IMG/VR virus record: IMGVR_UViG_2698536339_000014 | Location: 1 to 26,988 of that record | From: a virus | Lineage: Duplodnaviria; Heunggongvirae; Uroviricota; Caudoviricetes | Strand: one strand, 5' to 3' | Length of the DNA stretch: 26,988 nt | Part shown: positions 4,857 to 26,988 of the stretch, one piece after another | Layout of the letters: each line of letters begins with the position of its first letter | Numbering within the stretch: the first letter of the stretch is position 1 | The notes under the pieces: generated by a model | The model's input: only the letters and a program-made list of their open reading frames with translations | Databases searched by the model: none | Told to the model about the DNA's origin: nothing | Position numbers and translations under genes: made by a program

Positions 4857-5316
4857 TCAACGTAAGGCGTTCCTCGATATGCTGGCGTGGTCAGAGGGAA
4901 CTGATAACGGACGGCAGAAAACCAGAAATCATGGTTATGACGTCATTGTAGGCGGAGAGCTATTCACTGATTACTCAGATCACCCTCGCAAACTTGTCAC
5001 GCTAAACCCCAAACTCAAATCAACAGCAGCCGGACGTTACCAGCTTCTTTCCCGTTGGTGGGATGTCTATCGTAAGCAGCTTGGCCTGAAAGACTTCTCT
5101 CCCAAAAGCCAGGACGCTGTGGCATTGCAGCAGATTAAAGAGCGTGGCGCTTTACCGATGATTGATCGCGGTGATATTCGTCAGGCTATCGACCGTTGCA
5201 GCAATATCTGGGCTTCACTGCCGGGCGCTGGTTATGGTCAGTTCGAGCATAAGGCTGACAGCCTGATTGCAAAATTCAAAGAAGCTGGAGGAACGGTCAG
5301 AGAGATTGAGGTATGA
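4840..5316 (+). CDS. R: endolysin R (lambda-type lytic transglycosylase)
   Basis: 158 aa; [21 protein letters not shown] with the catalytic Glu context; overlaps S and Rz. Confidence 0.9.
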
Positions 5317-5750
5317 GCAGAGTAACCGCGATTATCTCCGCTCTGATTATCTGCATCATCGTCTGTCTGTCATGGGCTGTTAATCATTACCGTGATAACG
5401 CCATCGCCTACAAAGACCAGCGCGATAAAGCCACATCCATCATCGCTGATATGCAGAAGCGTCAACGTGATGTAGCTGAACTCGATGCCAGATACACAAA
5501 GGAGCTTGCTGATGCTAACGCGACTATCGAAAGTCTCCGCGCTGATGTTTCTGCTGGGCGTAAGCGCCTGCAGGTCGCCGCCACCTGTGCAAAGTCAACG
5601 ACCGGAGCCAGCGGCATGGGCGATGGAGAAAGCCCAAGACTTACAGCAGATGCTGAACTCAATTATTACCGTCTCCGAAGTGGAATCGACAGGATAACCG
5701 CGCAGGTTAACTACCTGCAGGAGTACATCAGGACGCAATGCCTTCGATGA
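5313..5750 (+). CDS. Rz: i-spanin Rz
   Basis: 145 aa; N-terminal TM segment then coiled-coil periplasmic domain; ATGA overlap with R. Confidence 0.85.
5512..5697 (+). CDS. Rz1: o-spanin Rz1 (lipoprotein), embedded in the +1 frame of Rz
   Basis: [20 protein letters not shown]: signal peptide with lipobox-like VSAC, then a Pro-rich mature part; GGAG upstream; the ORF track start at 5485 is an extension. Confidence 0.7.
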
Positions 5751-5925
5751 TAGCGATAATTTTACTCATCATCCTTCACATCTGGCTCTGTAGACAGGGT
5801 GGTGATCACTTCTGGAGTGAATCCAGATTAAACATCTCATTGCTGATGCTTGATATTGAGCATCTGGCGCGCAGTAAGGGGCTGCGTTGAGATAAGAGCC
5901 AGTTCATTACAAATACCAGGATTTA

Positions 5926-5949
5926 GCCTCGCATTTGCGGGGCTTTTTT
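5926..5949 (+). terminator. intrinsic terminator downstream of the lysis cassette
   Basis: GCCTCGC-ATTT-GCGGGGC hairpin followed by T6 (5944-5949). Confidence 0.5.
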
Positions 5950-6093
5950 ATATCTGAATTTCACAGCGCATCTCACGCGCATATTAACGAGAGCCTTTCA
6001 GTAAGCGAGCCTGAGAAATGCCGTTATAGGTGGCGACCTCTCTCGGGCGGCTTTTCTGTGAGACAGGCTCACTTTCTAAAAGGTAAAGACGCT

Positions 6094-6618
6094 ATGAATA
6101 ATCATTCAGTTATTCCAGCCTTCGACTTCCGAGAAATGGTGCAAGCCAAAAACGGAGAGGTCGTTACCACATCCAGAAAAATTGCCAAGTACTTCGGCAA
6201 GCGACACGGTGATGTTCTCAGGAAAATCGAGCAGGTTAAGGCTGATTGCTCGCGTGAGTTTAGCCAACGCAATTTTGCGTCGGCTGATTATATCGATGAA
6301 CAGGGCAAGGTTCGCCCGATGTACAGCCTGACGAAAGATGGCTGGATCATGGTTGTAATGGGGTTCACCGGGAAAGCTGCTGCAGCAATCAAGGAGAGCT
6401 ATATAGCAGCATTCAATTGGATGGCAGAGCAACTGAGCCGCCGCATGGCAATTGGCGAAGAAATGCAGCACCGCTACGCCATCAAAGAAACACGCTCAAA
6501 GCTGAAAGGTACGATCGGCAGTCGATTAATGAACGAACGGAAGAAAGAGAAGCGTGTCCTGGCTGTCGAGCATGAATACATCTTGCAGGTGACACAGCCT
6601 GAACTGCTGATTAATTGA
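6094..6618 (+). CDS. rha: Rha-family phage regulatory protein (P22 orf201-like position)
   Basis: 174 aa from ATG 6094; KIAKYFGKRHGDVLRKI motif typical of the Rha domain; the ORF track start at 5935 runs through the upstream terminator and is rejected. Confidence 0.7.
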   Translation: MNNHSVIPAFDFREMVQAKNGEVVTTSRKIAKYFGKRHGDVLRKIEQVKADCSREFSQRNFASADYIDEQGKVRPMYSLTKDGWIMVVMGFTGKAAAAIKESYIAAFNWMAEQLSRRMAIGEEMQHRYAIKETRSKLKGTIGSRLMNERKKEKRVLAVEHEYILQVTQPELLIN

Positions 6619-6657
6619 AGATGTCATTACAAAGCCTATCTACGGGTGGGCTTGATA

Positions 6658-6750
6658 ATGAAACCGGAATTTATTCTGGGTAACCAGTTACGGCAGTACC
6701 GCGAAACAACCCAAGCCAGTAAGTGGGGAAATAACACTGGCAGCCACTGA
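6658..6750 (+). pseudogene. possible remnant of an XRE-family HTH regulator (30-codon ORF)
   Basis: MKPEFILGNQLRQYRETTQAS resembles the N-terminus of Cro/CI-type HTH proteins but stops at TGA 6748-6750. Confidence 0.2.
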
Positions 6751-6909
6751 AAGATGAACCTCCTGCCTTATGGCAAAAAAGATTCTTTGTGGTGGCGGAC
6801 TGATGGAAAGACATCGGATAGAATAAAACAGTGGCTAGGGTAGCTCCCGAAAAGCGGAATCGTCACCGCCAGCCACTGAATCTATGACGAACAACTAGAC
6901 GAGGTTGAT

Positions 6910-7152
6910 ATGAGTGAAATTGATAAAATAATAAATGGTACATGTAACTTTCAATCAATGCCGCCAGGTAGTTATGTAAAACAATGTAGTGAAATAGTTA
7001 ATGGTCAGCTTGTAATGTCAAATGCAGGACGCGGAGTTTCTACGGATGAAAAAAAATCAATAAATGAAGCCCTGTTAAGCATCAATGTTTTTGACTTGTT
7101 TCGCCCATCTTGGGTTATCTTGCAAAATAGTAACCAATTCCCACATTATTGA
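6910..7152 (+). CDS. hypothetical protein (80 aa) encoded by an AT-rich moron
   Basis: GAGGT upstream; markedly AT-rich codon usage compared with flanking genes; followed by a weak hairpin plus T-tract. Confidence 0.5.
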   Translation: MSEIDKIINGTCNFQSMPPGSYVKQCSEIVNGQLVMSNAGRGVSTDEKKSINEALLSINVFDLFRPSWVILQNSNQFPHY

Positions 7153-7169
7153 TAATTAATTATTAAATT

Positions 7170-7191
7170 GGTCGCTAAGTCGGCCTTTTTT
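7170..7191 (+). terminator. weak candidate terminator after the moron ORF
   Basis: GGTCG-CTAAGT-CGGCC hairpin (one G-U) followed by T6. Confidence 0.3.
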
Positions 7192-7298
7192 ATTGCCATC
7201 ACAAAAGCCATTCCCTACAGAGTGGCTTTGATAATGGCTTATACCCTACACGGGATAACTTAACTGATATCCCTTTTAACGGATAAATGGAGCCAACA

Positions 7299-7541
7299 AT
7301 GGCAGAGATTATTCCCATGACTGAAGAACAGAAATTCCAGTTAGAGATTTACAAACTGGTCATGAACCAGAACGCAGCCGCAGAGGAAGCATTTCAGTTC
7401 ATTGGCACTGACGAGCTGAAGCTTGAGCTATTCAAAATTCACTTCCAGTCAGGCGGCGCTAATTCGGATATCACGATCCGCACATTTGAAGCGGTGCGTA
7501 AATCTAAGGAAGCGTTAGACCTGTTCACTACCGGAGCATGA
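7299..7541 (+). CDS. hypothetical protein (80 aa), position of P22 orf80 upstream of the small terminase
   Basis: ATG 7299 with GGAG 6 nt upstream; the ORF track start at 7287 is an alternative. Confidence 0.5.
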   Translation: MAEIIPMTEEQKFQLEIYKLVMNQNAAAEEAFQFIGTDELKLELFKIHFQSGGANSDITIRTFEAVRKSKEALDLFTTGA

Positions 7542-7576
7542 TGCTCAACCTGAAATAACAACTAAGTGAGATGAAT

Positions 7577-8065
7577 ATGGCAGCACCAAAGGGCAACCGA
7601 TTTTGGGAGGCCCGCAGTAGTCATGGGCGAAATCCTAAATTCGAATCGCCTGATGCGCTGTGGGCTGCTTGTTGTGAATACTTCGAGTGGGCTGATGATA
7701 ACCCGCTATGGGAGGGTAAGGTATTTTCATATCAGGGAGAAATAATTAAGGCTAATGTCCCTAAGATGCGAGCCATGACTATTTCAGGATTGTGTACCTT
7801 CCTTGATATCACCAGGCAAACATGGGGAACCTTCCGGTCAATGGAAGGTTTTTCTGACGTCACATCACGAGCGGAAGACATCATCTACGACCAGAAATTC
7901 TCTGGCGCAGCCGCTGACCTTCTCAACGCTAACATCATCGCCCGTGATTTGGGCCTCAAAGAGCAGTCGCAAGTTGAAGACGTGACACCTGATAAGGGAG
8001 ATCGCGATAAGCGACGCTCTCGTATCAAGGAGCTATTCAACCGTGGAACTGGACGCGATTCTTGA
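7577..8065 (+). CDS. terS: terminase small subunit (P22 gp3-like)
   Basis: [25 protein letters not shown]... and the C-terminal [25 protein letters not shown] match my recollection of P22 gp3; alternative start 7571. Confidence 0.85.
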
Positions 8066-9542
8066 TAACCTGAGCGACGAAGAGCAAATCGAATTGCTCG
8101 AGCTACTCGAAGAAGAAGAGAACTACCGGAACACACACCTGCTATATGAATTTACGCCATACAGCAAACAGCGTGAGTTCATCGACGCCGGGCATGACTA
8201 TCCAGAGCGATGTTTTATGGCTGGTAACCAGCTTGGTAAGTCATTTACTGGTGCTGCTGAAGTCGCGTTTCACCTTACCGGGCGTTATCCGGGCACAAAA
8301 GGCTATCCTGCTGATGGTAAATATGGCGGTGAGTGGAAAGGTAAGCGTTTCTATGAGCCTGTTGTCTTCTGGATTGGCGGCGAGACAAACGAGACTGTAA
8401 CCAAAACGACTCAACGCATCCTGTGCGGTCGTATCGAAGAGAATGATGAGCCTGGCTACGGTTCCATACCGAAAGAAGACATCATTAGCTGGAAGAAGTC
8501 TCCTTTCTTTCCGAACCTTGTTGATCATCTTCTGGTTAAGCATCACACGGCTGATGGCGTTGAAGATGGCATTTCAATCTGCTACTTCAAGCCATACTCG
8601 CAAGGCCGTGCTCGCTGGCAGGGTGACACAATCCATGGCGTGTGGTTTGACGAAGAACCACCATACAGCATTTATGGCGAAGGTCTTACCCGTACCAACA
8701 AATACGGGCAATTCTCAATTCTGACGTTTACCCCGCTGATGGGGATGTCTGACGTTGTTACCAAGTTCCTGAAGAATCCCAGCAGGTCGCAGAAAGTGGT
8801 CAACATGACCATCTACGACGCTGAGCACTACACAGACGAACAGAAAGAGCAAATCATCGCATCTTATCCTGAGCATGAGAGAGAGGCGCGTGCTCGCGGT
8901 ATTCCTACGATGGGTAGTGGTCGAATCTTCCAGATACCGGAAGAGACTATTAAGTGTCAGCCGTTCGAGTGTCCTGATCACTTCTACGTAATTGGTGGGA
9001 TGGATTTCGGATGGGATCACCCACAGGCGCAGGTTCAGCTTTGGTGGGATAAGGACGCAGACACAATCTACGTTTCACGCGTGTGGAAGGCGAAAGAAAA
9101 AACAGCTGTTCAGGCATGGGGAGCTGTTAAATCATGGGCGCATAAAGTGCCAACCGCATGGCCTCATGACGGAAACCAGCATGAGAAGGGCGGCGGTGAG
9201 CAGCTTAAAGGGCAGTACGCGGACGCTGGTTTTATGATGTTGCAGGAGCATGCGACATGGCCTGATGGCGGTAATGCTGTTGAGCCTGGCATCACTGAAT
9301 TGCGCGACATGATGCTCGATGGTCGCTTCAAAGTATTCAACACCTGTGAGCCATTCTTTGAGGAGTTCCGCCTCTATCACCGTGATGAAAACGGGAAAAT
9401 CGTCAAGCTTAACGACGACGTTCTCTCAGCCGTTCGCTATGCATACATGATGCGCCGCTTCGCCAAAATGATGCGCGACATCAAAAAACCAAAAGAGAAA
9501 AAGATACCAGCCCCAATCAGGCCCATCGCACGGAGAACTTAA
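8043..9542 (+). CDS. terL: terminase large subunit (P22 gp2-like)
   Basis: 499 aa, same length as P22 gp2; [38 protein letters not shown]-terminus; overlaps the terS 3' end. Confidence 0.92.
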
Positions 9543-20083: not shown

Positions 20084-22477
20084 ATGGCTAATTACCGTGA
20101 TTTGTTAGAGCAGGCTGGCGCACGTTACGGTGTGCCAGAAGGGTTGATGACTGCACTGGGTGCCAAGGAGTCTTCTTACAACCCTGCCGCAGTAAGCTCC
20201 GCCGGGGCTGTAGGATTGACTCAGGTCATGCCTGGGACATGGCGTGATATGGGTTATACCGATGAGCAAATGCAAAACCCCGAATATCAGGCTGACGCTG
20301 GCGCGCGCTATCTGGCAAAGATGTACCAGCAGTTTGGTAACTGGCGTGACGCTCTTCAGGCTTATCACGACGGTCCCGGCAACGTTATGAAGGCAAAGCG
20401 TGGTGAATATACGCCAGGACCTGAAGGCCGCGGTTACGTTGATGATCGCTTTGCTCAATGGGCGGGTGACCCGGTGACAGACTCAACAGTCGAACAGCGC
20501 GCCACCTCTGCAAAGGTACATCCTCAGCAAGACCCTAACAACCCGTTTGCACAACTGGAAGCACAGTCATCCGAACAAGTATCGGCATCAGGCGTGCAGT
20601 CAGACCCAAATAATCCATTTGCTCAGATTGAGCAGCAGGCAGCCAGTCAGCAGCCACCTCAACCCGTAAGTTCTGTCGCACCGAAACCTGTTCAGCAGCA
20701 AGGCGGAATAATGTCTGACCTTGGTAATGGACTTGCTGAAACCGGGCGCGGCTTACTACAGGCAGGAATCAACGTAGCGAACATACCTGCTGAACTCACT
20801 GATGCTGTAACAAGCGCGGCGGCTTGGGCTGGCGGTAAACTCGGCATTGGCGATGGTACATATCAACCAGCACCACGAGTAACAACGCAGGGATTAGAGC
20901 AGGACTTTGGCCTTCAGCAAGGCGCGCTGACTCCACAAACGACAGAGGGAAGGGTATTTGCTGAAGCATTGCCTTACCTCACTCCTGCTGGCGTTGAGAG
21001 AGCGGCGGTACAGGCACCAACACTTGCTGGTCGAATTGCTCAGGGGGCAACTCGCCTTCTCGCAGAAAACGCAGTTGGATCACTTGCTGCAAACAGTGCG
21101 AAAGATGATGCGGAAGCACTCGCCACCGATTTAGGCGTTGGTGTGCTGGCTGGCGGTGCTATTAACGCTGCCGGACGTGGATTAGGTGCTGCTTATCGTG
21201 GTGTTCGTGGTGCTATCGCGCCAGAAGCGCAGCAGGCTATCAGATTTGCAGAGCGTGAAGGAGTTCCTCTGCACACCACAGACCTGTTACAACCAACTTC
21301 CCGCGTCGGAAAAATGGCGCAGACTACAGCAGAAAATATCCCTCTGGCTGGCACAAGCGGAATGAGAGCAACGCAACAGGAAGCGAGAAGCCAGTTGGTT
21401 CAGAGATTTGCTGATAAATTCGGGGAGTATGATCCAGCGGTTGTTATTGACAGCCTTAAAGCGAAAACATCAGGAATTCGTCGTGCTGCCGGTAATCGAC
21501 TGGAGCAGGTTCAGAATGCTATGGCTGGAGTAAACATTCAACCTGCGCGAGCAATTCAGCAGATTGATACAGAAATATCTAACCTGCAGAAGCTTGGTAA
21601 GGTTGCTGATAACGAGACTATTTCAAAACTTCAGTCATATCGTGATGAGCTTGTTCGCAATGCTGGTCCTGATGGTCCGGTCAATCTGGATTTGAAGCAA
21701 TTAAGCGATCTGCGCAGCCAGTTCAGAATGGACGTGAAGGGTGAGCGACCAGTGTTACCAAACCGTTCCGATGCTGCCATTCAGCGAGTTTACAAGGCGA
21801 TGACCGACGATATCAATGGTGCCATTGGTCAGAATCTTGGCAATGATACTCTTCGTAAATATCAGCAGGCCAATGCCGTCTACGCTGACGAAGCGGCGAA
21901 ACTAAAGAATACCAGGCTGAAGAATGTTCTCATGAAAGGCGACCTGACACCGGAAGTTGTCAACAACATGCTATTCAGCAAGAACAAATCTGAAATTAAG
22001 ACTCTGTATAACTCAGTTGGTCGTGTTGGTAGGGCGCAAATGCGCAATGGCATCATTGGAAAGGCGATGGAGAAATCAGGTGGTTCCCCTGACCAGTTCC
22101 TTCGACAGCTTAACATCCTGCAAAACCAGACTGGAATAACATTTAAGGGGCAGGACGCTGCTTATCTGAAAGGATTGAAAAACTACCTGCAATCCACGCA
22201 GCAGGCTGCAAAAGCGGCAGTAACAACACCAACAGGGCAGCAAACCATCCCGTTCATTATCGGGTATGGGACGGCAATGAACCCGGCGACAACTGGCGCA
22301 GCGGTAAGCTACGGACTTCTTACTCGCGCCTATGAGAGTGAGCCATTCAGAAATGCAATGCTCCGAATGGCAAACACCCCACGCGGATCAACATCTTTTG
22401 AGAAAGCCATGCAGCAGGCACAAAAGGCTATTAACGCTATGACGCAGGGTGCCAAGTCTGATGCGTTGTCAGAATAG
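20084..22477 (+). CDS. ejection protein (P22 gp16 position) with N-terminal lytic transglycosylase (SLT) domain
   Basis: 797 aa; SLT motifs AKESSYNP, GLTQVMP, AYHDGPGN in the first ~120 aa; long Ala/Gln-rich remainder. Confidence 0.7.
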   Translation: MANYRDLLEQAGARYGVPEGLMTALGAKESSYNPAAVSSAGAVGLTQVMPGTWRDMGYTDEQMQNPEYQADAGARYLAKMYQQFGNWRDALQAYHDGPGNVMKAKRGEYTPGPEGRGYVDDRFAQWAGDPVTDSTVEQRATSAKVHPQQDPNNPFAQLEAQSSEQVSASGVQSDPNNPFAQIEQQAASQQPPQPVSSVAPKPVQQQGGIMSDLGNGLAETGRGLLQAGINVANIPAELTDAVTSAAAWAGGKLGIGDGTYQPAPRVTTQGLEQDFGLQQGALTPQTTEGRVFAEALPYLTPAGVERAAVQAPTLAGRIAQGATRLLAENAVGSLAANSAKDDAEALATDLGVGVLAGGAINAAGRGLGAAYRGVRGAIAPEAQQAIRFAEREGVPLHTTDLLQPTSRVGKMAQTTAENIPLAGTSGMRATQQEARSQLVQRFADKFGEYDPAVVIDSLKAKTSGIRRAAGNRLEQVQNAMAGVNIQPARAIQQIDTEISNLQKLGKVADNETISKLQSYRDELVRNAGPDGPVNLDLKQLSDLRSQFRMDVKGERPVLPNRSDAAIQRVYKAMTDDINGAIGQNLGNDTLRKYQQANAVYADEAAKLKNTRLKNVLMKGDLTPEVVNNMLFSKNKSEIKTLYNSVGRVGRAQMRNGIIGKAMEKSGGSPDQFLRQLNILQNQTGITFKGQDAAYLKGLKNYLQSTQQAAKAAVTTPTGQQTIPFIIGYGTAMNPATTGAAVSYGLLTRAYESEPFRNAMLRMANTPRGSTSFEKAMQQAQKAINAMTQGAKSDALSE

Positions 22478-22641: not shown

Positions 22642-24552
22642 ATGACAGACATTACAGCCAATGTTGTAGTAAGCATGCCTTCGCAACTCTTCACTATGGC
22701 TCGTTCTTTTAAAGCCGTAGCCAATGGCAAAATTTATATCGGTAAAATTGACACGGACCCGGTAAATCCTGAAAACCAGATTCAGGTTTGTGTAGAGAAT
22801 GAAGACGGCTCTCACGTTCCTGTTTCGCAACCAATCATTATTAACGCTGCTGGTTATCCGGTATATAACGGACAGATTGCCAAGTTTGTAACCGTGCAAG
22901 GCCATTCTATGGCTGTTTATGATGCGTACGGTGCTCAGCAGTTCTATTTCCCTAATGTGCTTAAGTATGACCCTGACCAACTAAGGCCAGAGTTTGAACA
23001 GTTTAAAGCAGATCTCGCAGGAAGCGAAGGGGCAAAGAAAGTTGGCATTGGTGTGCGAACTGTTTATAACAACCTGGATGATATCAAGCACTCCGGTAAT
23101 TACGTAGACCTACAAGAGGCTATTGATATCACAAGATATCGCGACGATCTGTTAATTACTCCTGGTACATATACTGGAGAATACACTTCCGGAAACGCCA
23201 ATCTCATTGGTACCGGATATAATGTTATCTTTAAGCCAGACATTGGCAAGACAAGCATTACACTATCTGAATCATCGCGATTATGGCAATATCGCCACGC
23301 GCAGAACTTCCTTATTGAGGGAAATATTTCCACACCACAAGGAATTGGCATAGCTTTTGGATCGTCTAATCTTGATGGCCGATGGAACTTTAGGGATATT
23401 GCTTTTGACGGTCTTGATATTGGAGTTTTCAAGCCAAAAGGAAACATTGGTAATACATATAAGCATTGTAGCTATCTTGAATGCAATTACGGACACAAGG
23501 CGCAATCTGAAAATAATATGCACGCAGGTTCAGATTCATGGCAAAATTGCCACTTTGCTGGAATAAAAAAATATTGCATTTATATAAATGGAAAGATTGG
23601 AGGACCAGCACCAGGAGGTGGAATTGATGGAATAAAAATCAAGGACTGCATCATGGAACAATGCGAAGGTGGCGGTATATATTTGAATGGTAATGACCTC
23701 GCTCCTGTTGTTCCACCGGTAATTTCAAACGTTTGGTTTGAACTGGTAGCTAAAGACGAAACTGTTGATATTGATGGCGTGGTACAGAAGCCAAGGCAAC
23801 TTAAACTTGTTGATATGCCTTCTGTGGTGGCTGAGCAGTGCTATTTTAATAACATTGAACTAATAAATTCTACTTTAATAGCCAGAGGGTGCAGATTTGA
23901 TAGCGCTACTGGTATTTACGATATTCAGATTGATGATACAAGCAAGATTATTGCAAGGGATGTTGTCTGTGATGGTTACATTGGTCCTAGCATTCACGTT
24001 GAGTCGATAGCAATACAACACTTTGGAGCATTGCAGAACGTGGATATATCTTTAAGAGGCACTTCAATAAAAGGAAGGATTAAAAGGTTGCCAACTGGCG
24101 AAATTCTTAATTCAGAGTCATTTACAGGTGATGGTCCATGGCAGTTTTTAGGAACTGGCACCGTTGATGGCTCAAGCGTGTCTGACGGATCGTTATCTGA
24201 TAAATGTGCACAGGTAAACATTCCAGCCGGTTACACGATATCATTGAATATTTCACCAGCTAACATAGCTAAGTTTTACCATGTTGTTTGGGGATGTAGC
24301 ATTAAACTTGTATCAGGTGATGTTACAGGATCGTTCTCAGGTGATACAGATCAGCTTGGCAACATATACACCTCTACAGGTGAATGGGTACACACATTTG
24401 GAGTAGGGAGAGCAGTAAAATCAGGCGCAGTAAAGTTAACATTGAAAACAACATCTGGATGTGTAGTTAGGTTAAATGACTATTTTGTTTGTCAATTCAT
24501 TAAATCACAAGATGCTTATGATTTTGCAAATAGCAGAATGTCTATAGAATAA
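22642..24552 (+). CDS. tailspike: P22 gp9-type head-binding domain fused to a divergent receptor-binding domain
   Basis: First ~115 aa ([11 protein letters not shown]...KYDPDQ) match the recalled P22 gp9 N-terminal domain; the remainder is AT-rich, Gly/Asn-rich and beta-helix-like with no P22 similarity. Confidence 0.9.
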
Positions 24553-24559
24553 ATGATAT

Positions 24560-24592
24560 TTCGGCATCAGTGTATAAAATACCGATGCCGAA
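24560..24592. terminator. hairpin between the convergent tailspike and acyltransferase genes (candidate bidirectional terminator)
   Basis: 9-bp perfect stem TTCGGCATC / GATGCCGAA with a 15-nt loop; A/T-rich flanks on both sides. Confidence 0.45.
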
Positions 24593-24600
24593 CATATAAT

Positions 24601-25731
24601 TTATTTTACTGAATTTCTTAAAATAAAGCCTTCTCTGCAAGATTTTACTTTAAAACGAAGAAAAAAACTCTCAAATAAGTAAAATGATGCTATTGAAACT
24701 GCATATGATACAATAAATGAAGCAGCTATGTAAGTGAATCCATCAGTTGTGATTCCTACAAATGAAAACATTTTTCTTACTATTGAAAAACATAGCAAGT
24801 GCCACATGTAAAGGCCGTAACTTATATTTCCTGTAAATCTAAGGAATTTTAAGTTAAATATCTTGTTACAAGTCGTTATAAATAGTTGTAAAATATTGCT
24901 GTCTGTTGCTGTCTGTTGCTGTCTGTTGCTGTCTGTCATTTTTCCTGATGAATAATATAAGAACCAAATAATTGATGAGAATGTCATCCCTAATGATGTA
25001 AATAGGTATAATCCCTTGCCAACCCACTGCTCTGGATGCCAAAAATTATTAATCCCAATATTTATAACGCCATATGCAGTAACAATAGAACCAACTATAA
25101 ATGTCAACATGGCTATTTGTGGTGCTTTATTGCTATCCTTTATATGAGCAAAGATAGCGCCTAGGACAAGCATATCAACACAACTGATAAGAGTTACGTT
25201 AGTTATATACGGATTACCTCCAGACATATTGAATATAAAATATCTAGAAGCTAGTGAGATTATCACAAGAAATACAAAAAAACATACTTCCTTTGGTGGG
25301 CGAATAAAAAATATTACAATAGGCCAAATCCAATAGAATTGTTCTTCTATAGCTAGAGACCATGTGTGTCCAAGTATTCCTGGTGTTGTTATGTTATTAC
25401 CAATGTAATAGTTTTGTAAGTAGGTGACAAACCAAGAATAACCTTCCGTACTTCCTCCCATTGATTTAACTATTACAAAATTAACCGCAAGGTATAGATA
25501 GAATAGAGGAAATATTCTCAACGATCTATTTATTAGAAACTTTTTAATATACCAGGCAAATCTATACTTCCTGTCTTCCTCAAGAATTGATGTGATCAGG
25601 AACCCCGAAAGGCAAAAGAATAATGGAACACCAGCCCACCCCAAAGATGCCCAAGGTATATTAGAATGAAATAACATGACCATTATGACGGCAATTCCTC
25701 TAGCTCCATCAAGAGAAGTAACGTGTTTCAT
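24601..25731 (-). CDS. acyltransferase-3 family integral membrane protein (candidate O-antigen acetyltransferase, Oac/OafA-like)
   Basis: 376 aa; N-terminal LDGARGIAVIMVMLFH and C-terminal FTGNISYGLYMWH motifs; about 10 hydrophobic segments; strongly AT-rich; sits between tailspike and int, as oac does in Sf6. Confidence 0.8.
   Translation of the reverse strand: MKHVTSLDGARGIAVIMVMLFHSNIPWASLGWAGVPLFFCLSGFLITSILEEDRKYRFAWYIKKFLINRSLRIFPLFYLYLAVNFVIVKSMGGSTEGYSWFVTYLQNYYIGNNITTPGILGHTWSLAIEEQFYWIWPIVIFFIRPPKEVCFFVFLVIISLASRYFIFNMSGGNPYITNVTLISCVDMLVLGAIFAHIKDSNKAPQIAMLTFIVGSIVTAYGVINIGINNFWHPEQWVGKGLYLFTSLGMTFSSIIWFLYYSSGKMTDSNRQQQTATDSNILQLFITTCNKIFNLKFLRFTGNISYGLYMWHLLCFSIVRKMFSFVGITTDGFTYIAASFIVSYAVSIASFYLFESFFLRFKVKSCREGFILRNSVK
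24898..24937 (-). repeat. 10-bp tandem repeat x4 (GCTGTCTGTT on +; last unit GCTGTCTGTC) inside the acyltransferase coding sequence
   Basis: Counted directly in the sequence; encodes TDSNRQQQTATDS in the gene frame. Confidence 0.95.
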
Positions 25732-25821
25732 TGTATTTTCCGATTATTTTGTGTGATTGTTAATGAGAACCTTGACAGTATACACGTGATCTACTTATAC
25801 CATAAACTGGTATGTCATTTT

Positions 25822-26988
25822 TCATGAACTAACTTTAAACTTCTCATCAAGCCAGTCCGCCCACCACTGCATCATTTCTCTGCGCTTATCGAGATACTGA
25901 GCATGGTTGTAAATCCCGCGCACAGATCCGCCGTTGGCATGTGCCAGTTGCACTTCAATAGCATCAGCAGGCCATTCGTGCTCGTTCATAATCGTGCTGA
26001 ATTCATGCCTGAATCCGTGACCGCTTTCCAGACCCTCATAGCCGATTTGTTTGATCACAAGCAATACCGCGTTCTCGCAGATTGGCTTCTTCTTATCGTT
26101 GCGCCCGGCAAAAACAAACTCTGATACTGGTTTAGTGATTGAGCTTAGCGTAGTGAGAAGTTCAACTACCTGGTCTGACATAGGAACCACATGAATTTTG
26201 CGTCCCTTCATCACACTGGCGTCGATGGTGATAATCCTGTTTTCAAAATCGACGTTCTTCCATAGCATGGAACGAAGCTCTTTCGTTCTTAGGGCAGTGT
26301 AGCGTAAAACCTTGGTGGCAATGAGCGATACGATACTTCCTGAAAATGTTGCCAGTGCTTTATTGAATGCCGGGATCTGGTCTGCAGGAAGAAACGGGAA
26401 GTTCTTCTTGCGGTACCCCTTCATGGCGTCAGCAAGGTCAGGTGCCGGGTTATATTTAGCCCTACCAGTGACAATAGCGTAACGGAAAACCTCGCCGCAT
26501 CTTCTGCGGGCTTTGTTGGCTCGCTCCATTGCACCGCGATCTTCAAACCTGCGGATTACTTCCAGCAGTTGCATCGGCTCAATATCCTGAATTTCAAGGC
26601 CGCCAATGATAGGTAAAATGTCGTCGTCAAACATTTTGGCAAGTTCAGTCGCATATCCTACAGACCAGACTTGCTTCTTGTGCTCGTACCATTCCTTGTA
26701 AATGGCGCTAAAGGAATTGTTGTTAGACGAAGCCTTTTTCGCTTTTACCGGATCGATGCCAACCGAGATGTCTTTCCTCGCAGTCCATGCTTTATCCCTT
26801 GCCTCTTGCAAAGTCATAAGCGGATATTTTCCTACGGTCAGGATTTTCTCCTTACCGTCAATCTTGTAGCGAAGCTGCCATACCTTTTTCCCTGACACAG
26901 GGACATAAAGGTACAGGCCATTACCATCGAGTAGGCGGTATGGTTTTTCTTTCGGCTTTGCTGCTTCAATCTGCTTAACGGTGAGCAT
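25822..26988 (-). CDS. int: tyrosine integrase (P4/P22-type, N-terminal arm-binding domain)
   Basis: 388 aa; HGFRHEF...GIYNHAQYL catalytic region; start codon is the last 3 nt of the window (reverse strand). Confidence 0.9.
   Translation of the reverse strand: MLTVKQIEAAKPKEKPYRLLDGNGLYLYVPVSGKKVWQLRYKIDGKEKILTVGKYPLMTLQEARDKAWTARKDISVGIDPVKAKKASSNNNSFSAIYKEWYEHKKQVWSVGYATELAKMFDDDILPIIGGLEIQDIEPMQLLEVIRRFEDRGAMERANKARRRCGEVFRYAIVTGRAKYNPAPDLADAMKGYRKKNFPFLPADQIPAFNKALATFSGSIVSLIATKVLRYTALRTKELRSMLWKNVDFENRIITIDASVMKGRKIHVVPMSDQVVELLTTLSSITKPVSEFVFAGRNDKKKPICENAVLLVIKQIGYEGLESGHGFRHEFSTIMNEHEWPADAIEVQLAHANGGSVRGIYNHAQYLDKRREMMQWWADWLDEKFKVSS

Follow-up and report, generated by a model that had tools for sequence, protein, structure and literature searches.

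A candidate O109 receptor and lysogenic-conversion module with a frame-shifting repeat in an Sf6/HK620-like prophage at argW

Phage Sf6 of Shigella flexneri integrates at an argW-type attachment site and carries, in this order, the genes of a DNA-transfer protein and the tailspike (plus strand), a terminator, an acetyltransferase gene, oac (minus strand), a promoter, and an IntS-type integrase gene (minus strand). The acetyltransferase Oac (OacA) features an AT3-only architecture with an RXXR motif. The acetylation of the O-antigen blocks the phage's own endorhamnosidase (AT3 review). A repeat-based switch is found neither in the genome annotation of oac nor in the AT3 review. In the Salmonella prophage BTP1, the acetyltransferase GtrC(BTP1) adjoins a P22-type tailspike, protects the O-antigen of the lysogen from the BTP1 spike, and confers superinfection resistance; it is reported not to be phase variable. 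Phase-variable AT3 acetylation of LPS or LOS is known from tetranucleotide repeats in Haemophilus influenzae (oafA) and from epigenetic control upstream of Salmonella oafB (AT3 review). The oafA and oafB/gtr systems either belong to the chromosomes of other species or are under Dam/OxyR control.

CUS-3 of Escherichia coli K1 is a P22-like prophage at argW with the O-acetyltransferase gene neuO between its endosialidase tailspike and its integrase, neuO being co-directional with the tailspike. NeuO is a soluble left-handed β-helix acetyl-CoA transferase and acts on the spike's own receptor polysaccharide, the capsule polysialic acid. The gene contains a 7-nt repeat, located 2 nt after the start codon and occurring in 2 to 93 copies. 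As 7 is not divisible by 3, the full-length enzyme is made at one in three copy numbers only, and the peptide encoded by in-frame repeats is tolerated. The switching of neuO is experimentally proven, and the allele of the deposited CUS-3 genome is out of frame, with 19 copies. Haemophilus, Neisseria, and Campylobacter are the genera in which contingency genes driven by repeats typically occur. To our knowledge, they are very rare in E. coli, with neuO as the standard example. In the open-access literature, the capsule gene neuO was the only repeat-based on/off surface-sugar switch found described for E. coli, and no earlier account of a prophage-borne, phase-variable O-antigen acetyltransferase was found for this species.

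The locus described here was analyzed as part of a 26,988-nt stretch of phage DNA, hereafter the window. Its gene order is gp16, tailspike, acyltransferase, and integrase, as in Sf6 (tailspike/oac/int), with the tailspike on the plus strand (22642..24552) and the acyltransferase on the minus strand (24601..25731). These two convergent ORFs lie as given in an earlier note on this DNA. The locus ends in an IntS-type tyrosine integrase (25822..26988, minus strand; Pfam Phage_integrase and Arm-DNA-bind_3), which marks the prophage end at the tRNA-Arg gene argW; in loci identical to the window, the integrase is followed by tRNA-Arg, yfdC, mlaA, and fadL. A terminator-like hairpin, TTCGGCATC-N15-GATGCCGAA, lies between the convergent stop codons (24560..24592). 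The RNA fold of 24553–24600 has a free energy of −18.1 kcal/mol (z −5.15; 0 of 200 shuffles as good), and the hairpin could act as a terminator in both directions. The 90-nt gap from the integrase stop to the acyltransferase start (25732..25821, minus strand) contains weak promoter-like hexamers: two 9/12 sigma-70-like matches at 25763–25735 and 25757–25730, which are consensus matches only. Sf6 has its annotated terminator and its putative oac promoter at the positions equivalent to this hairpin and this gap. The gap has a single GATC and lacks the paired GATC in OxyR half-sites, which rules out epigenetic (Dam/OxyR) control of the gtr/oafB type.

The tailspike comprises 636 residues and is P22-like (Lederbergvirus-type) as judged by an N-terminal PF09008 domain and a right-handed parallel β-helix body. 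The head-binding, or virion attachment, domain covers residues 1 to 115 (22642..22986, plus strand). The Pfam family Head_binding (PF09008) matches residues 1 to 113 over its full profile with an E value of 3e-66, and PHROG 27367, "tail fiber protein", matches residues 121 to 635 (E 2e-134). The N-domain is near-identical to residues 1 to 120 of the solved Sf6 gp14 structure 7sg7 (phmmer E 2.6e-65), and the solved N-domains of Sf6, P22, and HK620 all match it in a PDB sequence search. The head-binding DNA is 89 to 94% identical to Sf6 (about 90%), HK620, and CUS-3. Known P22-like phage DNA matches the gene over the first ~340 nt only (HK620 93.8%, Sf6 89.6%), and the remainder has no megablast match among 50,697 phage records. 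The PDB sequence search matched the head-binding domain alone and returned nothing for the receptor-binding part; NCBIfam has no model for the tailspike. The chimeric tailspike of the earlier note, with a conserved P22-type head-binding domain and a receptor-binding portion unlike P22 in sequence, is borne out by these separate searches, and no well-characterized tailspike matches the receptor-binding part in PDB sequence searches, structure searches, or among the phage relatives.

The receptor-binding part consists of two stretches. The linker and the first β-helix coils (residues 116–280; 22987..23481, plus strand) form the best-conserved stretch of the receptor-binding family in the alignment and are 92 to 100% identical to the 635-residue variant tailspikes of the O109 strains P393-F10 and 19AR0254. 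Across 16 homologues (alignment A3), 84 of the 85 invariant columns fall at residues 130 to 296, the remaining one being residue 317. The carboxylates E210, D245, D256, and D259 are invariant in all 16 and are candidate catalytic residues only. The second stretch (residues 281–636; 23482..24552, plus strand) comprises the AT-rich, divergent part of the β-helix and a C-terminal β-sandwich and is presumably the determinant of specificity. The receptor-binding part was modeled with moderate confidence (pLDDT 72) as the β-helix that the earlier note had suggested looking for. Its best structural neighbors include the O-antigen-specific spikes CBA120 TSP2, Sf6, and HK620—a match of fold class only, with no close relative among them. 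A deacetylase spike of the SGNH type, known from N4-like phages, is ruled out, since Pfam and structure searches yielded no esterase fold. Receptor-binding domains of lytic coliphages are homologous along the full receptor-binding part: Bp4/PD38 (72 kb) at 66% identity, vB-EcoS-XT34 at 58%, the Golestan group at 40%, and LM33_P1 at 39%. These relatives belong to PHROG 27367 too but have other N-terminal adaptors, and their homology shows that spike modules pass between podo- and siphoviruses, as they commonly do. For the domains of Bp4, XT34, Golestan, and LM33_P1, no solved structure or biochemistry was found in PDB and literature searches.

Both genes differ from the backbone in composition. 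The backbone (1–22641) has a GC content of 0.492, and its 1131-nt windows have a mean of 0.493, a standard deviation of 0.024, and a minimum of 0.426. Residues 116 to 280 of the tailspike are encoded at 0.41, residues 281 to 636 at 0.391, the acyltransferase at 0.332, and the integrase at 0.476. The two values of 0.391 and 0.332 are hence under the lowest backbone window, in agreement with the view of the tailspike and the acyltransferase as AT-rich and compositionally foreign against a backbone of ~50% GC, the acyltransferase being lower still. The compositional break of the earlier note exists, but not at its proposed start near 23000: the AT-rich block begins inside the β-helix, and a comparison with a sister tailspike places the sequence break at the same site, around residue 280 (~23,480), ~480 nt further in.

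A probable receptor can be named from the host distribution. Complete E. coli genomes whose match to the tailspike extends past the head-binding domain are without exception O109 (4/4), and the O109 wzy gene is present in 18 of 5,426 complete genomes. Because of this restriction to O109 hosts, we infer O109 to be the receptor: the β-helix is predicted to bind the O109 O-antigen of E. coli and would probably cleave it. The earlier proposal of an uncharacterized serotype specificity thus stands in that the pair appears to define a specificity, but this specificity can tentatively be named O109. A prior description of an O109 tailspike was not found in the open-access literature. The O109 gene cluster has a small acetyltransferase gene of its own, and O109 strains also have a 75 to 79% identical tailspike variant without the acyltransferase, so conversion is not obligatory in this phage group. 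The O109 serogroup occurs in poultry, cattle, and some Shiga-toxin strains.

The acyltransferase is an AT3-only membrane protein of 376 residues and a candidate O-antigen O-acetyltransferase, the window carrying an in-frame allele. Acyl_transf_3 (PF01757) covers residues 5 to 348 (E 1e-23) with no other domain and no fused SGNH, and the PHROG matches are 3333, O-acetyltransferase (7e-40), and 6705, O-antigen acetylase (1e-31). The AlphaFold2 model is all-helical (pLDDT 80, pTM 0.84). The AT3 review defines two motifs, R/K-X10-H in TM1 and RXXR in the first cytoplasmic loop; these are represented here by R11-X10-H22 and R69-S-L-R72, and H22, R69, and R72 are invariant in nine orthologues. The best phage-encoded relatives are GtrC of BTP1 at ~26% identity and Oac of Sf6 at 25% over 184 aligned positions (query residues 1–161). 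Compared with Sf6, the module shares its layout but features a receptor-binding domain unrelated in sequence, a distant acyltransferase, and an inferred E. coli O109 antigen instead of that of S. flexneri; GtrC of BTP1 is likewise distant in sequence. A scan of genome contigs gave, among the matches listed, relatives with 31 to 45% identity in the best aligned segment, none of them enterobacterial. Some ~135 assemblies carry the acyltransferase. In 26 retrieved loci besides the window, it invariably lies between a P22-type tailspike and the end of the prophage, and it adjoins the same receptor-binding domain in all 24 loci with a visible flank—on different backbones and at three integration sites. 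The enzyme most likely O-acetylates the same O-antigen that serves as receptor of the spike.

Within the acyltransferase gene lies a 10-nt tandem repeat, CAGACAGCAA on the coding strand, which encodes TDSNRQQQTATDSN (24896..24936, minus strand; TRF). It features 4.1 perfect copies (score 82, 100% matches) and is situated around codon ~266 of 376, where the model has a connector of low confidence joining the helices 242–261 and 279–292. The encoded insert is absent from orthologues at 42 to 58% identity. This frame-shifting repeat, in our judgment the most interesting feature of the locus, was absent from the earlier note. A change by one 10-nt unit shifts the reading frame, so the full-length enzyme is produced at one in three copy numbers only. 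Copy numbers from 2 to 9 are all represented among isolates, with products of 373, 376, 383, or 393 residues in frame and 278, 288, or 298 residues out of frame. Loci with identical flanks (0/4,500 differences) carry 9 or 6 copies, in frame, or 4, out of frame, and flanks with 2/4,500 differences carry 6 versus 4. Between isolates, the copy number has thus changed at least twice on identical or nearly identical flanks, crossing the frame, and the repeat mutates much faster than the surrounding DNA. The window allele has 4 units with a first unit of 10 nt and is in frame (ON); this type was seen with 4 units only, but the loci concerned were found through identity of the protein sequence, a route that would miss other copy numbers. 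Out-of-frame (OFF) alleles account for 18 of 129 contigs among the matches listed (~14%), a share that could be read as decay too, and are also found beside intact tailspikes. Automated annotation labels such switched-off alleles "acyltransferase" without any flag. A scan of IMG/VR with the repeat-flank pattern gave one match, with 3 units in frame, on one further viral contig whose acyltransferase was identified by this sequence only; the same scan of metagenomes gave no match. A text search of the open-access literature for the repeat unit returned unrelated primers only. An assembly artifact is ruled out, as the same alleles recur in independent assemblies and, by reasoning, arrays of 24 to 94 nt are below typical short-read length.

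By its sequence features, the repeat bears the marks of a contingency locus and has its parallel in neuO of CUS-3. The two differ in most particulars. The repeat of neuO is a heptanucleotide next to the start codon, whereas the one described here is a decanucleotide two-thirds into the gene with far fewer copies; neuO runs with the tailspike, whereas the acyltransferase converges on it; and NeuO is a soluble capsule-modifying enzyme, whereas the acyltransferase is a polytopic AT3 membrane protein that presumably modifies the O-antigen. The switching of neuO is proven by experiment; that of the acyltransferase gene is proposed. Unlike oafA and oafB, the gene is phage-borne in E. coli, has a decanucleotide repeat, and has one GATC upstream.

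The locus is probably the receptor and lysogenic-conversion module of an Sf6/HK620-like prophage at argW, combining an O109 spike, O-antigen acetylation, and a repeat-driven ON/OFF switch. In this mechanism, the conserved N-terminal domain would plug the tailspike into the tail, and the β-helix would bind, and probably cleave, the O109 O-antigen. The acyltransferase would O-acetylate the same O-antigen during or after export, and the acetylated O-antigen would no longer be usable by the tailspike—resulting in superinfection exclusion and serotype conversion. Repeat units would be gained or lost by strand slippage in the loop-coding part of the gene, in-frame copy numbers giving the full-length enzyme (ON) and the others a protein truncated after about 265 residues (OFF). 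Such switching would be reversible and frequent within a clone, though the short arrays (2–9 units) mean that it may be slow. The number of in-frame repeats (11–31 extra loop residues) might in addition tune enzyme activity, as in NeuO.

Several parts of this mechanism have competing explanations. Instead of being an O-antigen endoglycosidase, the tailspike could act as a lyase, bind without cleaving, or recognize a capsule or colanic acid that happens to co-occur with O109. This is improbable: an O-antigen-specific spike predicts restriction to one O-serogroup of ~180, as seen, whereas colanic acid is present in nearly all E. coli; O-antigen-specific spikes are among the structural neighbors; and the 39%-identical LM33_P1 fiber comes from a phage reported against O25b strains, so specificity differs at this level of identity. 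The acyltransferase, for its part, could modify another glycan (enterobacterial common antigen, colanic acid, capsule, or peptidoglycan) and lie beside the tailspike as cargo, considering that AT3 proteins act on many substrates (review), that its characterized relatives, GtrC and Oac, are distant, and that NCBIfam has no specific model for it. Its strict pairing with a single receptor-binding domain, whatever the backbone or integration site, its confinement to O109 hosts among complete genomes, its place in the exact oac/gtr slot, and PHROG families annotated as O-antigen acetylase give this explanation a low probability as well. That the AT-rich genes came from the host or from an insertion and have nothing to do with the phage would fit their strongly deviant GC content but is hardly credible, given that the tailspike ORF runs unbroken across the compositional break and that the acyltransferase is confined to its slot before the prophage end; its gene is no ordinary host gene, since P22-like prophages and remnants of them were the only places where it was found.

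The locus could also be a conversion module of the usual sort that lacks a functional switch: the loop would simply tolerate changes in length, the copy-number differences being neutral, and the out-of-frame alleles would be pseudogenes on their way out. Several carriers are indeed degraded, the tailspike being IS-disrupted or truncated in L002, L007, L012, and L018-20; the 2-unit OFF allele occurs in degraded prophage remnants only; the 373- and 376-residue alleles look stable across many contigs; and the arrays are short. On the other hand, the changes of copy number across the frame on near-identical flanks, the full series from 2 to 9 copies, and the intact tailspikes next to OFF alleles speak for a switch, and the degraded prophages L002, L007, and L012 keep the acyltransferase intact and in frame, which argues for retention rather than decay. 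A module without a functional switch is therefore regarded as unlikely. The chances are put at about even that E. coli has here, besides neuO, another "mobile contingency locus": a phage-borne, repeat-driven O109 acetylation switch of independent origin that occupies the position of neuO in this prophage family but uses an enzyme and a repeat unrelated to those of neuO.

The spike assignment gives a probable receptor, O109, to a spike family common to lytic phages. If the proposed mechanism is true, lysogen populations would be mixtures of acetylated and nonacetylated cells, and heterogeneous O109 serology and phage sensitivity are predicted. A mixed population would hedge against phages with the same receptor-binding domain and against antibody, and perhaps also against the variant spike of other O109 prophages at 75 to 79% identity. 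A second case beside neuO, in the same prophage slot but with a different enzyme family and target polysaccharide, would suggest that switchable modification of the receptor, as opposed to constitutive exclusion, has evolved repeatedly in P22-like phages.

The window comprises the late part of a P22-like prophage, where terminase, portal, coat, tail needle and ejection proteins precede the spike region. The tailspike gene (22642–24552, plus strand) encodes 636 aa with a Pfam Head_binding domain at aa 1–113 (E 3e-66), and the convergent acyltransferase gene ACYLTRANSFERASE (24601–25731, minus strand) encodes 376 aa with an Acyl_transf_3 domain at aa 5–348 (E 1e-23); both ORFs agree with the earlier note. 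A strong hairpin (−18.1 kcal/mol, z −5.2) lies between the two stop codons, and an IntS-type integrase gene (25822–26988, minus strand) lies beyond the acyltransferase gene. The backbone (22.6 kb) has a GC content of 0.492, and its 1131-nt windows have a mean of 0.493, an sd of 0.024 and a minimum of 0.426. The values of spike aa 281–636 (0.391) and of the acyltransferase gene (0.332) are far outside this variation—the integrase gene has 0.476—and the claim of an AT-rich pair in a backbone of ~50% GC is borne out. Ahead of the spike, the gp16-type ejection protein (20084–22477, plus strand; 797 aa) has an SLT lytic transglycosylase domain at its N-terminus (aa 7–110, E 3e-25), possibly a murein-cutting domain fused to the ejection protein; in sister prophages that share this spike module, gp16 has 665 aa and only the gp16 family is recorded.

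The tailspike features the conserved P22-type head-binding domain and a remainder unlike P22, as had been proposed: DNA matches to known phages are confined to the first ~340 nt of the gene (HK620 93.8%, CUS-3 91.7%, Sf6 89.6%), and among solved structures this domain is the sole sequence match. The receptor-binding part is assigned to PHROG 27367 (E 2e-134), and lytic coliphages of several morphotypes carry full-length relatives of it, namely Bp4, Uz-1 and PD38 (72 kb) at 66% identity, vB-EcoS-XT34 at 58%, the Golestan group at 40%, and LM33_P1 and other Kayfunavirus phages at 39%. Spike relatives in a large protein database form only 22 clusters, most of them 635-aa P22-type spikes with 72–75% identity, some carrying PF13229 Beta_helix. 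Protein records P0166 and P0167 (Salmonella enterica, 772 aa) and P0164/P0165 (905 aa), from Salmonella enterica assemblies and ~73-kb contigs, combine a 66% identical receptor-binding part with different, longer N-termini. This suggests that the family is not confined to one genus or one type of adaptor.

A 635-aa variant, the sister spike, occurs in P393-F10 and 19AR0254 (loci L003 and L032 of those fetched for comparison). It is 92–100% identical to the window spike up to aa ~280 and 45–75% beyond, and the GC content of the C-terminal part is 0.41–0.53 in the sister spike versus 0.37–0.42, dropping to 0.28, in the window spike. Because identity and GC both break at aa ~280, the AT-rich block is placed at ~23,482–25,731, spanning the acyltransferase gene and all but the proximal third of the receptor-binding part. 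The receptor-binding part is AT-rich as described earlier, with the break at ~23,480 instead of ~23000, and the window spike is a mosaic of three parts rather than two. The sister spike is 75–79% identical overall, has ordinary GC and is never adjoined by the acyltransferase in the P393-F10 and 19AR0254 loci; P393-F10 bears a 90-nt remnant, an "incomplete hypothetical protein", at the acyltransferase position. The intervals concerned are L003 7966–8055 and L032 5909–5965.

The convergent gene encodes an AT3-only protein with the motifs R-X10-H (R11, H22) and RXXR (R69-S-L-R72), which a review of AT3 proteins lists as essential in Oac/OafA; of their residues, H22, R69 and R72 are invariant in 9 orthologues. 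The predicted model is all-helical (pLDDT 80, pTM 0.84), and PHROG matches are 3333 (O-acetyltransferase) and 6705 (O-antigen acetylase). Identity to characterised enzymes is low (BTP1 GtrC ~26%; Sf6 Oac 25% over 184 aligned positions, query aa 1–161); the nearest orthologues, at 50–58%, are from Trabulsiella, Rouxiella, Enterobacter and other E. coli. Motifs, PHROG matches and an oac position as in Sf6 support the earlier assignment as a putative O-antigen-type acyltransferase. No gtr-type Dam/OxyR signature was found upstream of the gene.

Within this gene lies a perfect 10-nt tandem repeat (24896–24936) of 4.1 copies with the coding-strand unit CAGACAGCAA. It translates to TDSNRQQQTATDSN, part of an 18-residue insertion absent from eight orthologues (42–58% identity), located in a hydrophilic connector, modelled with low confidence, that links helices 242–261 and 279–292. 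Across the window and 26 loci (27 sequences), the arrays read from DNA measure 24, 34, 43, 44, 64, 74 or 94 nt, and only lengths equal to 1 mod 3 are in frame; DNA arrays and protein alleles together represent all copy numbers from 2 through 9. With an 11-nt first unit, as in the common allele type, the gene is in frame only at 3, 6 and 9 units; 47-1826 has 9. The first unit of the window allele is 1 nt shorter, which shifts the copy numbers that are in frame; every locus of this type, whose first unit is 10 nt, had 4 units, which is in frame; these loci were fetched by exact protein match, a selection that would hide other copy numbers. The same 90% clusters hold full-length products of 373, 376, 383 and 393 aa and, on long contigs, truncated products of 278, 288 and 298 aa that end with the repeat and an out-of-frame tail, HFTTIYNDL* or PATFYNYL*.

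Copy number was compared between isolates. The 4,500 nt of flanks are identical in three loci: L001 carries 9 units and L023 carries 6, both in frame, and L014 carries 4, which puts it out of frame. A further haplotype, separated from this one by about 87 substitutions, includes L025 with 6 units in frame and L015 with 4 units out of frame, and their flanks differ at 2 positions out of 4,500. Since copy numbers differ on identical or near-identical flanks, the repeat number changes far faster than point substitution, and shifts into or out of frame have happened repeatedly. Alleles that are out of frame are found beside intact spikes and, among the members listed, on 18 of 129 contigs. The arrays vary in unit sequence too: L021 and L022 have six identical CAGCCAGCAA units after the first, and L001 has CAGACAGCAA units with a lone CAGCCAGCAA last. 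These differences indicate that single variant units have expanded.

Linkage was assessed in 26 further loci and one IMG/VR contig recognised by its repeat-flank sequence. The same receptor-binding domain adjoins the acyltransferase in all 24 of 24 loci with downstream DNA visible (identity at least 98% in 21 and 95.9–99.2% in the other three), on differing backbones (gp16 of 665 or 797 aa; with or without immI genes) and at three chromosomal sites: ybhB-bioA (L026), next to dacD (L022) and argW (most others). Because of this constancy across backbones and sites, spike and acyltransferase are taken to travel as one cassette. At the two non-argW sites, the acyltransferase has no called integrase beside it, and the 2.2 kb upstream, with about 940 differences, are unrelated. 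Three degraded prophages (L002, L007, L012) have a broken spike and an intact, in-frame acyltransferase. The IS630-like ISEc33 splits the tailspike at the same point, between aa 449 and 450, in L002 (LF4-1; 5254–8014) and L012 (7180–8877); in LF4-1, IS1 additionally removes the N-terminal part, with no match before aa 354. The intact acyltransferase beside these split spikes looks like a conversion gene retained after phage death. In L018–L020 and L007, genes with Psu and Ogr/Delta domains (P4/P2-type) take the place of the prophage's left part and directly abut the truncated spike; L007 has an in-frame 4-unit allele, and the 2-unit out-of-frame allele is restricted to L018–L020.

The query is matched in 1,147 of 5,426 complete E. 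coli genomes, nearly all by the head-binding domain alone. Matches reach past this domain in four: 47-1826 has the whole module (99.3% identity), LF4-1 combines a spike disrupted by an IS with an intact acyltransferase, and P393-F10 and 19AR0254 have the sister spike. O109 wzx/wzy are annotated in the O-antigen clusters of 47-1826 and LF4-1, and a search for O109 wzy returned 18 of the 5,426 genomes, all four spike carriers among them; assuming independence of the four, the probability of such an outcome is ~(18/5426)^4, roughly 1e-10. They come from chicken (USA), deer (China) and humans (Philippines, New Zealand), with prophages at argW or ybhB-bioA. From this host distribution, we infer that the spike family recognises the O109 O-antigen. 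The open-access literature yielded no publication tying O109 to a tailspike. The suggestion of an uncharacterised serotype specificity is supported, and the four of four hosts sharpen it to a presumptive O109.

A spike with a conversion gene is a known kind of module (Sf6 spike/oac, BTP1 spike/gtrC). Sf6 oac has exactly the same position and orientation, in the order spike, terminator, oac, promoter, int. For BTP1, tests showed that the acetyltransferase shields the O-antigen of the lysogen against the spike encoded by the same prophage and prevents superinfection—a precedent for what such a pairing may do here, by analogy. The one close precedent for the switch is neuO of CUS-3, likewise in a P22-like prophage, at argW and in the same slot; its 7-nt repeat gives full-length enzyme only at copy numbers in multiples of three. 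However, the enzyme here is a polytopic AT3 protein, whereas NeuO is a soluble left-handed β-helix; the presumed target is O-antigen instead of K1 capsule; the repeat is a decanucleotide in an internal loop with 2–9 copies instead of a heptanucleotide at the 5′ end with 2–93; and gene orientation differs. The CUS-3 reference genome (L030, CP000711.1) holds 19 neuO heptanucleotide copies at 9105–9237, an out-of-frame allele, and the deposit annotates neuO as a repeat region only, not as a CDS. The AT3 review describes H. influenzae AT3 genes with tetranucleotide repeats and epigenetic switching in Salmonella; for E. coli, the open-access literature gave no account of an O-antigen acetyltransferase that is both phage-borne and switched by a repeat. 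As judged from the repeat alleles, the conversion gene probably carries a contingency switch. The composite mechanism, an O109-targeting spike with a repeat-switched O-antigen acetyltransferase, is put forward with fair confidence, which is greatest as regards the identities and the hypermutable repeat and weaker as regards what would follow biochemically. Owing to the probable switch, this region is more than the usual combination of a mosaic spike and a conversion gene.
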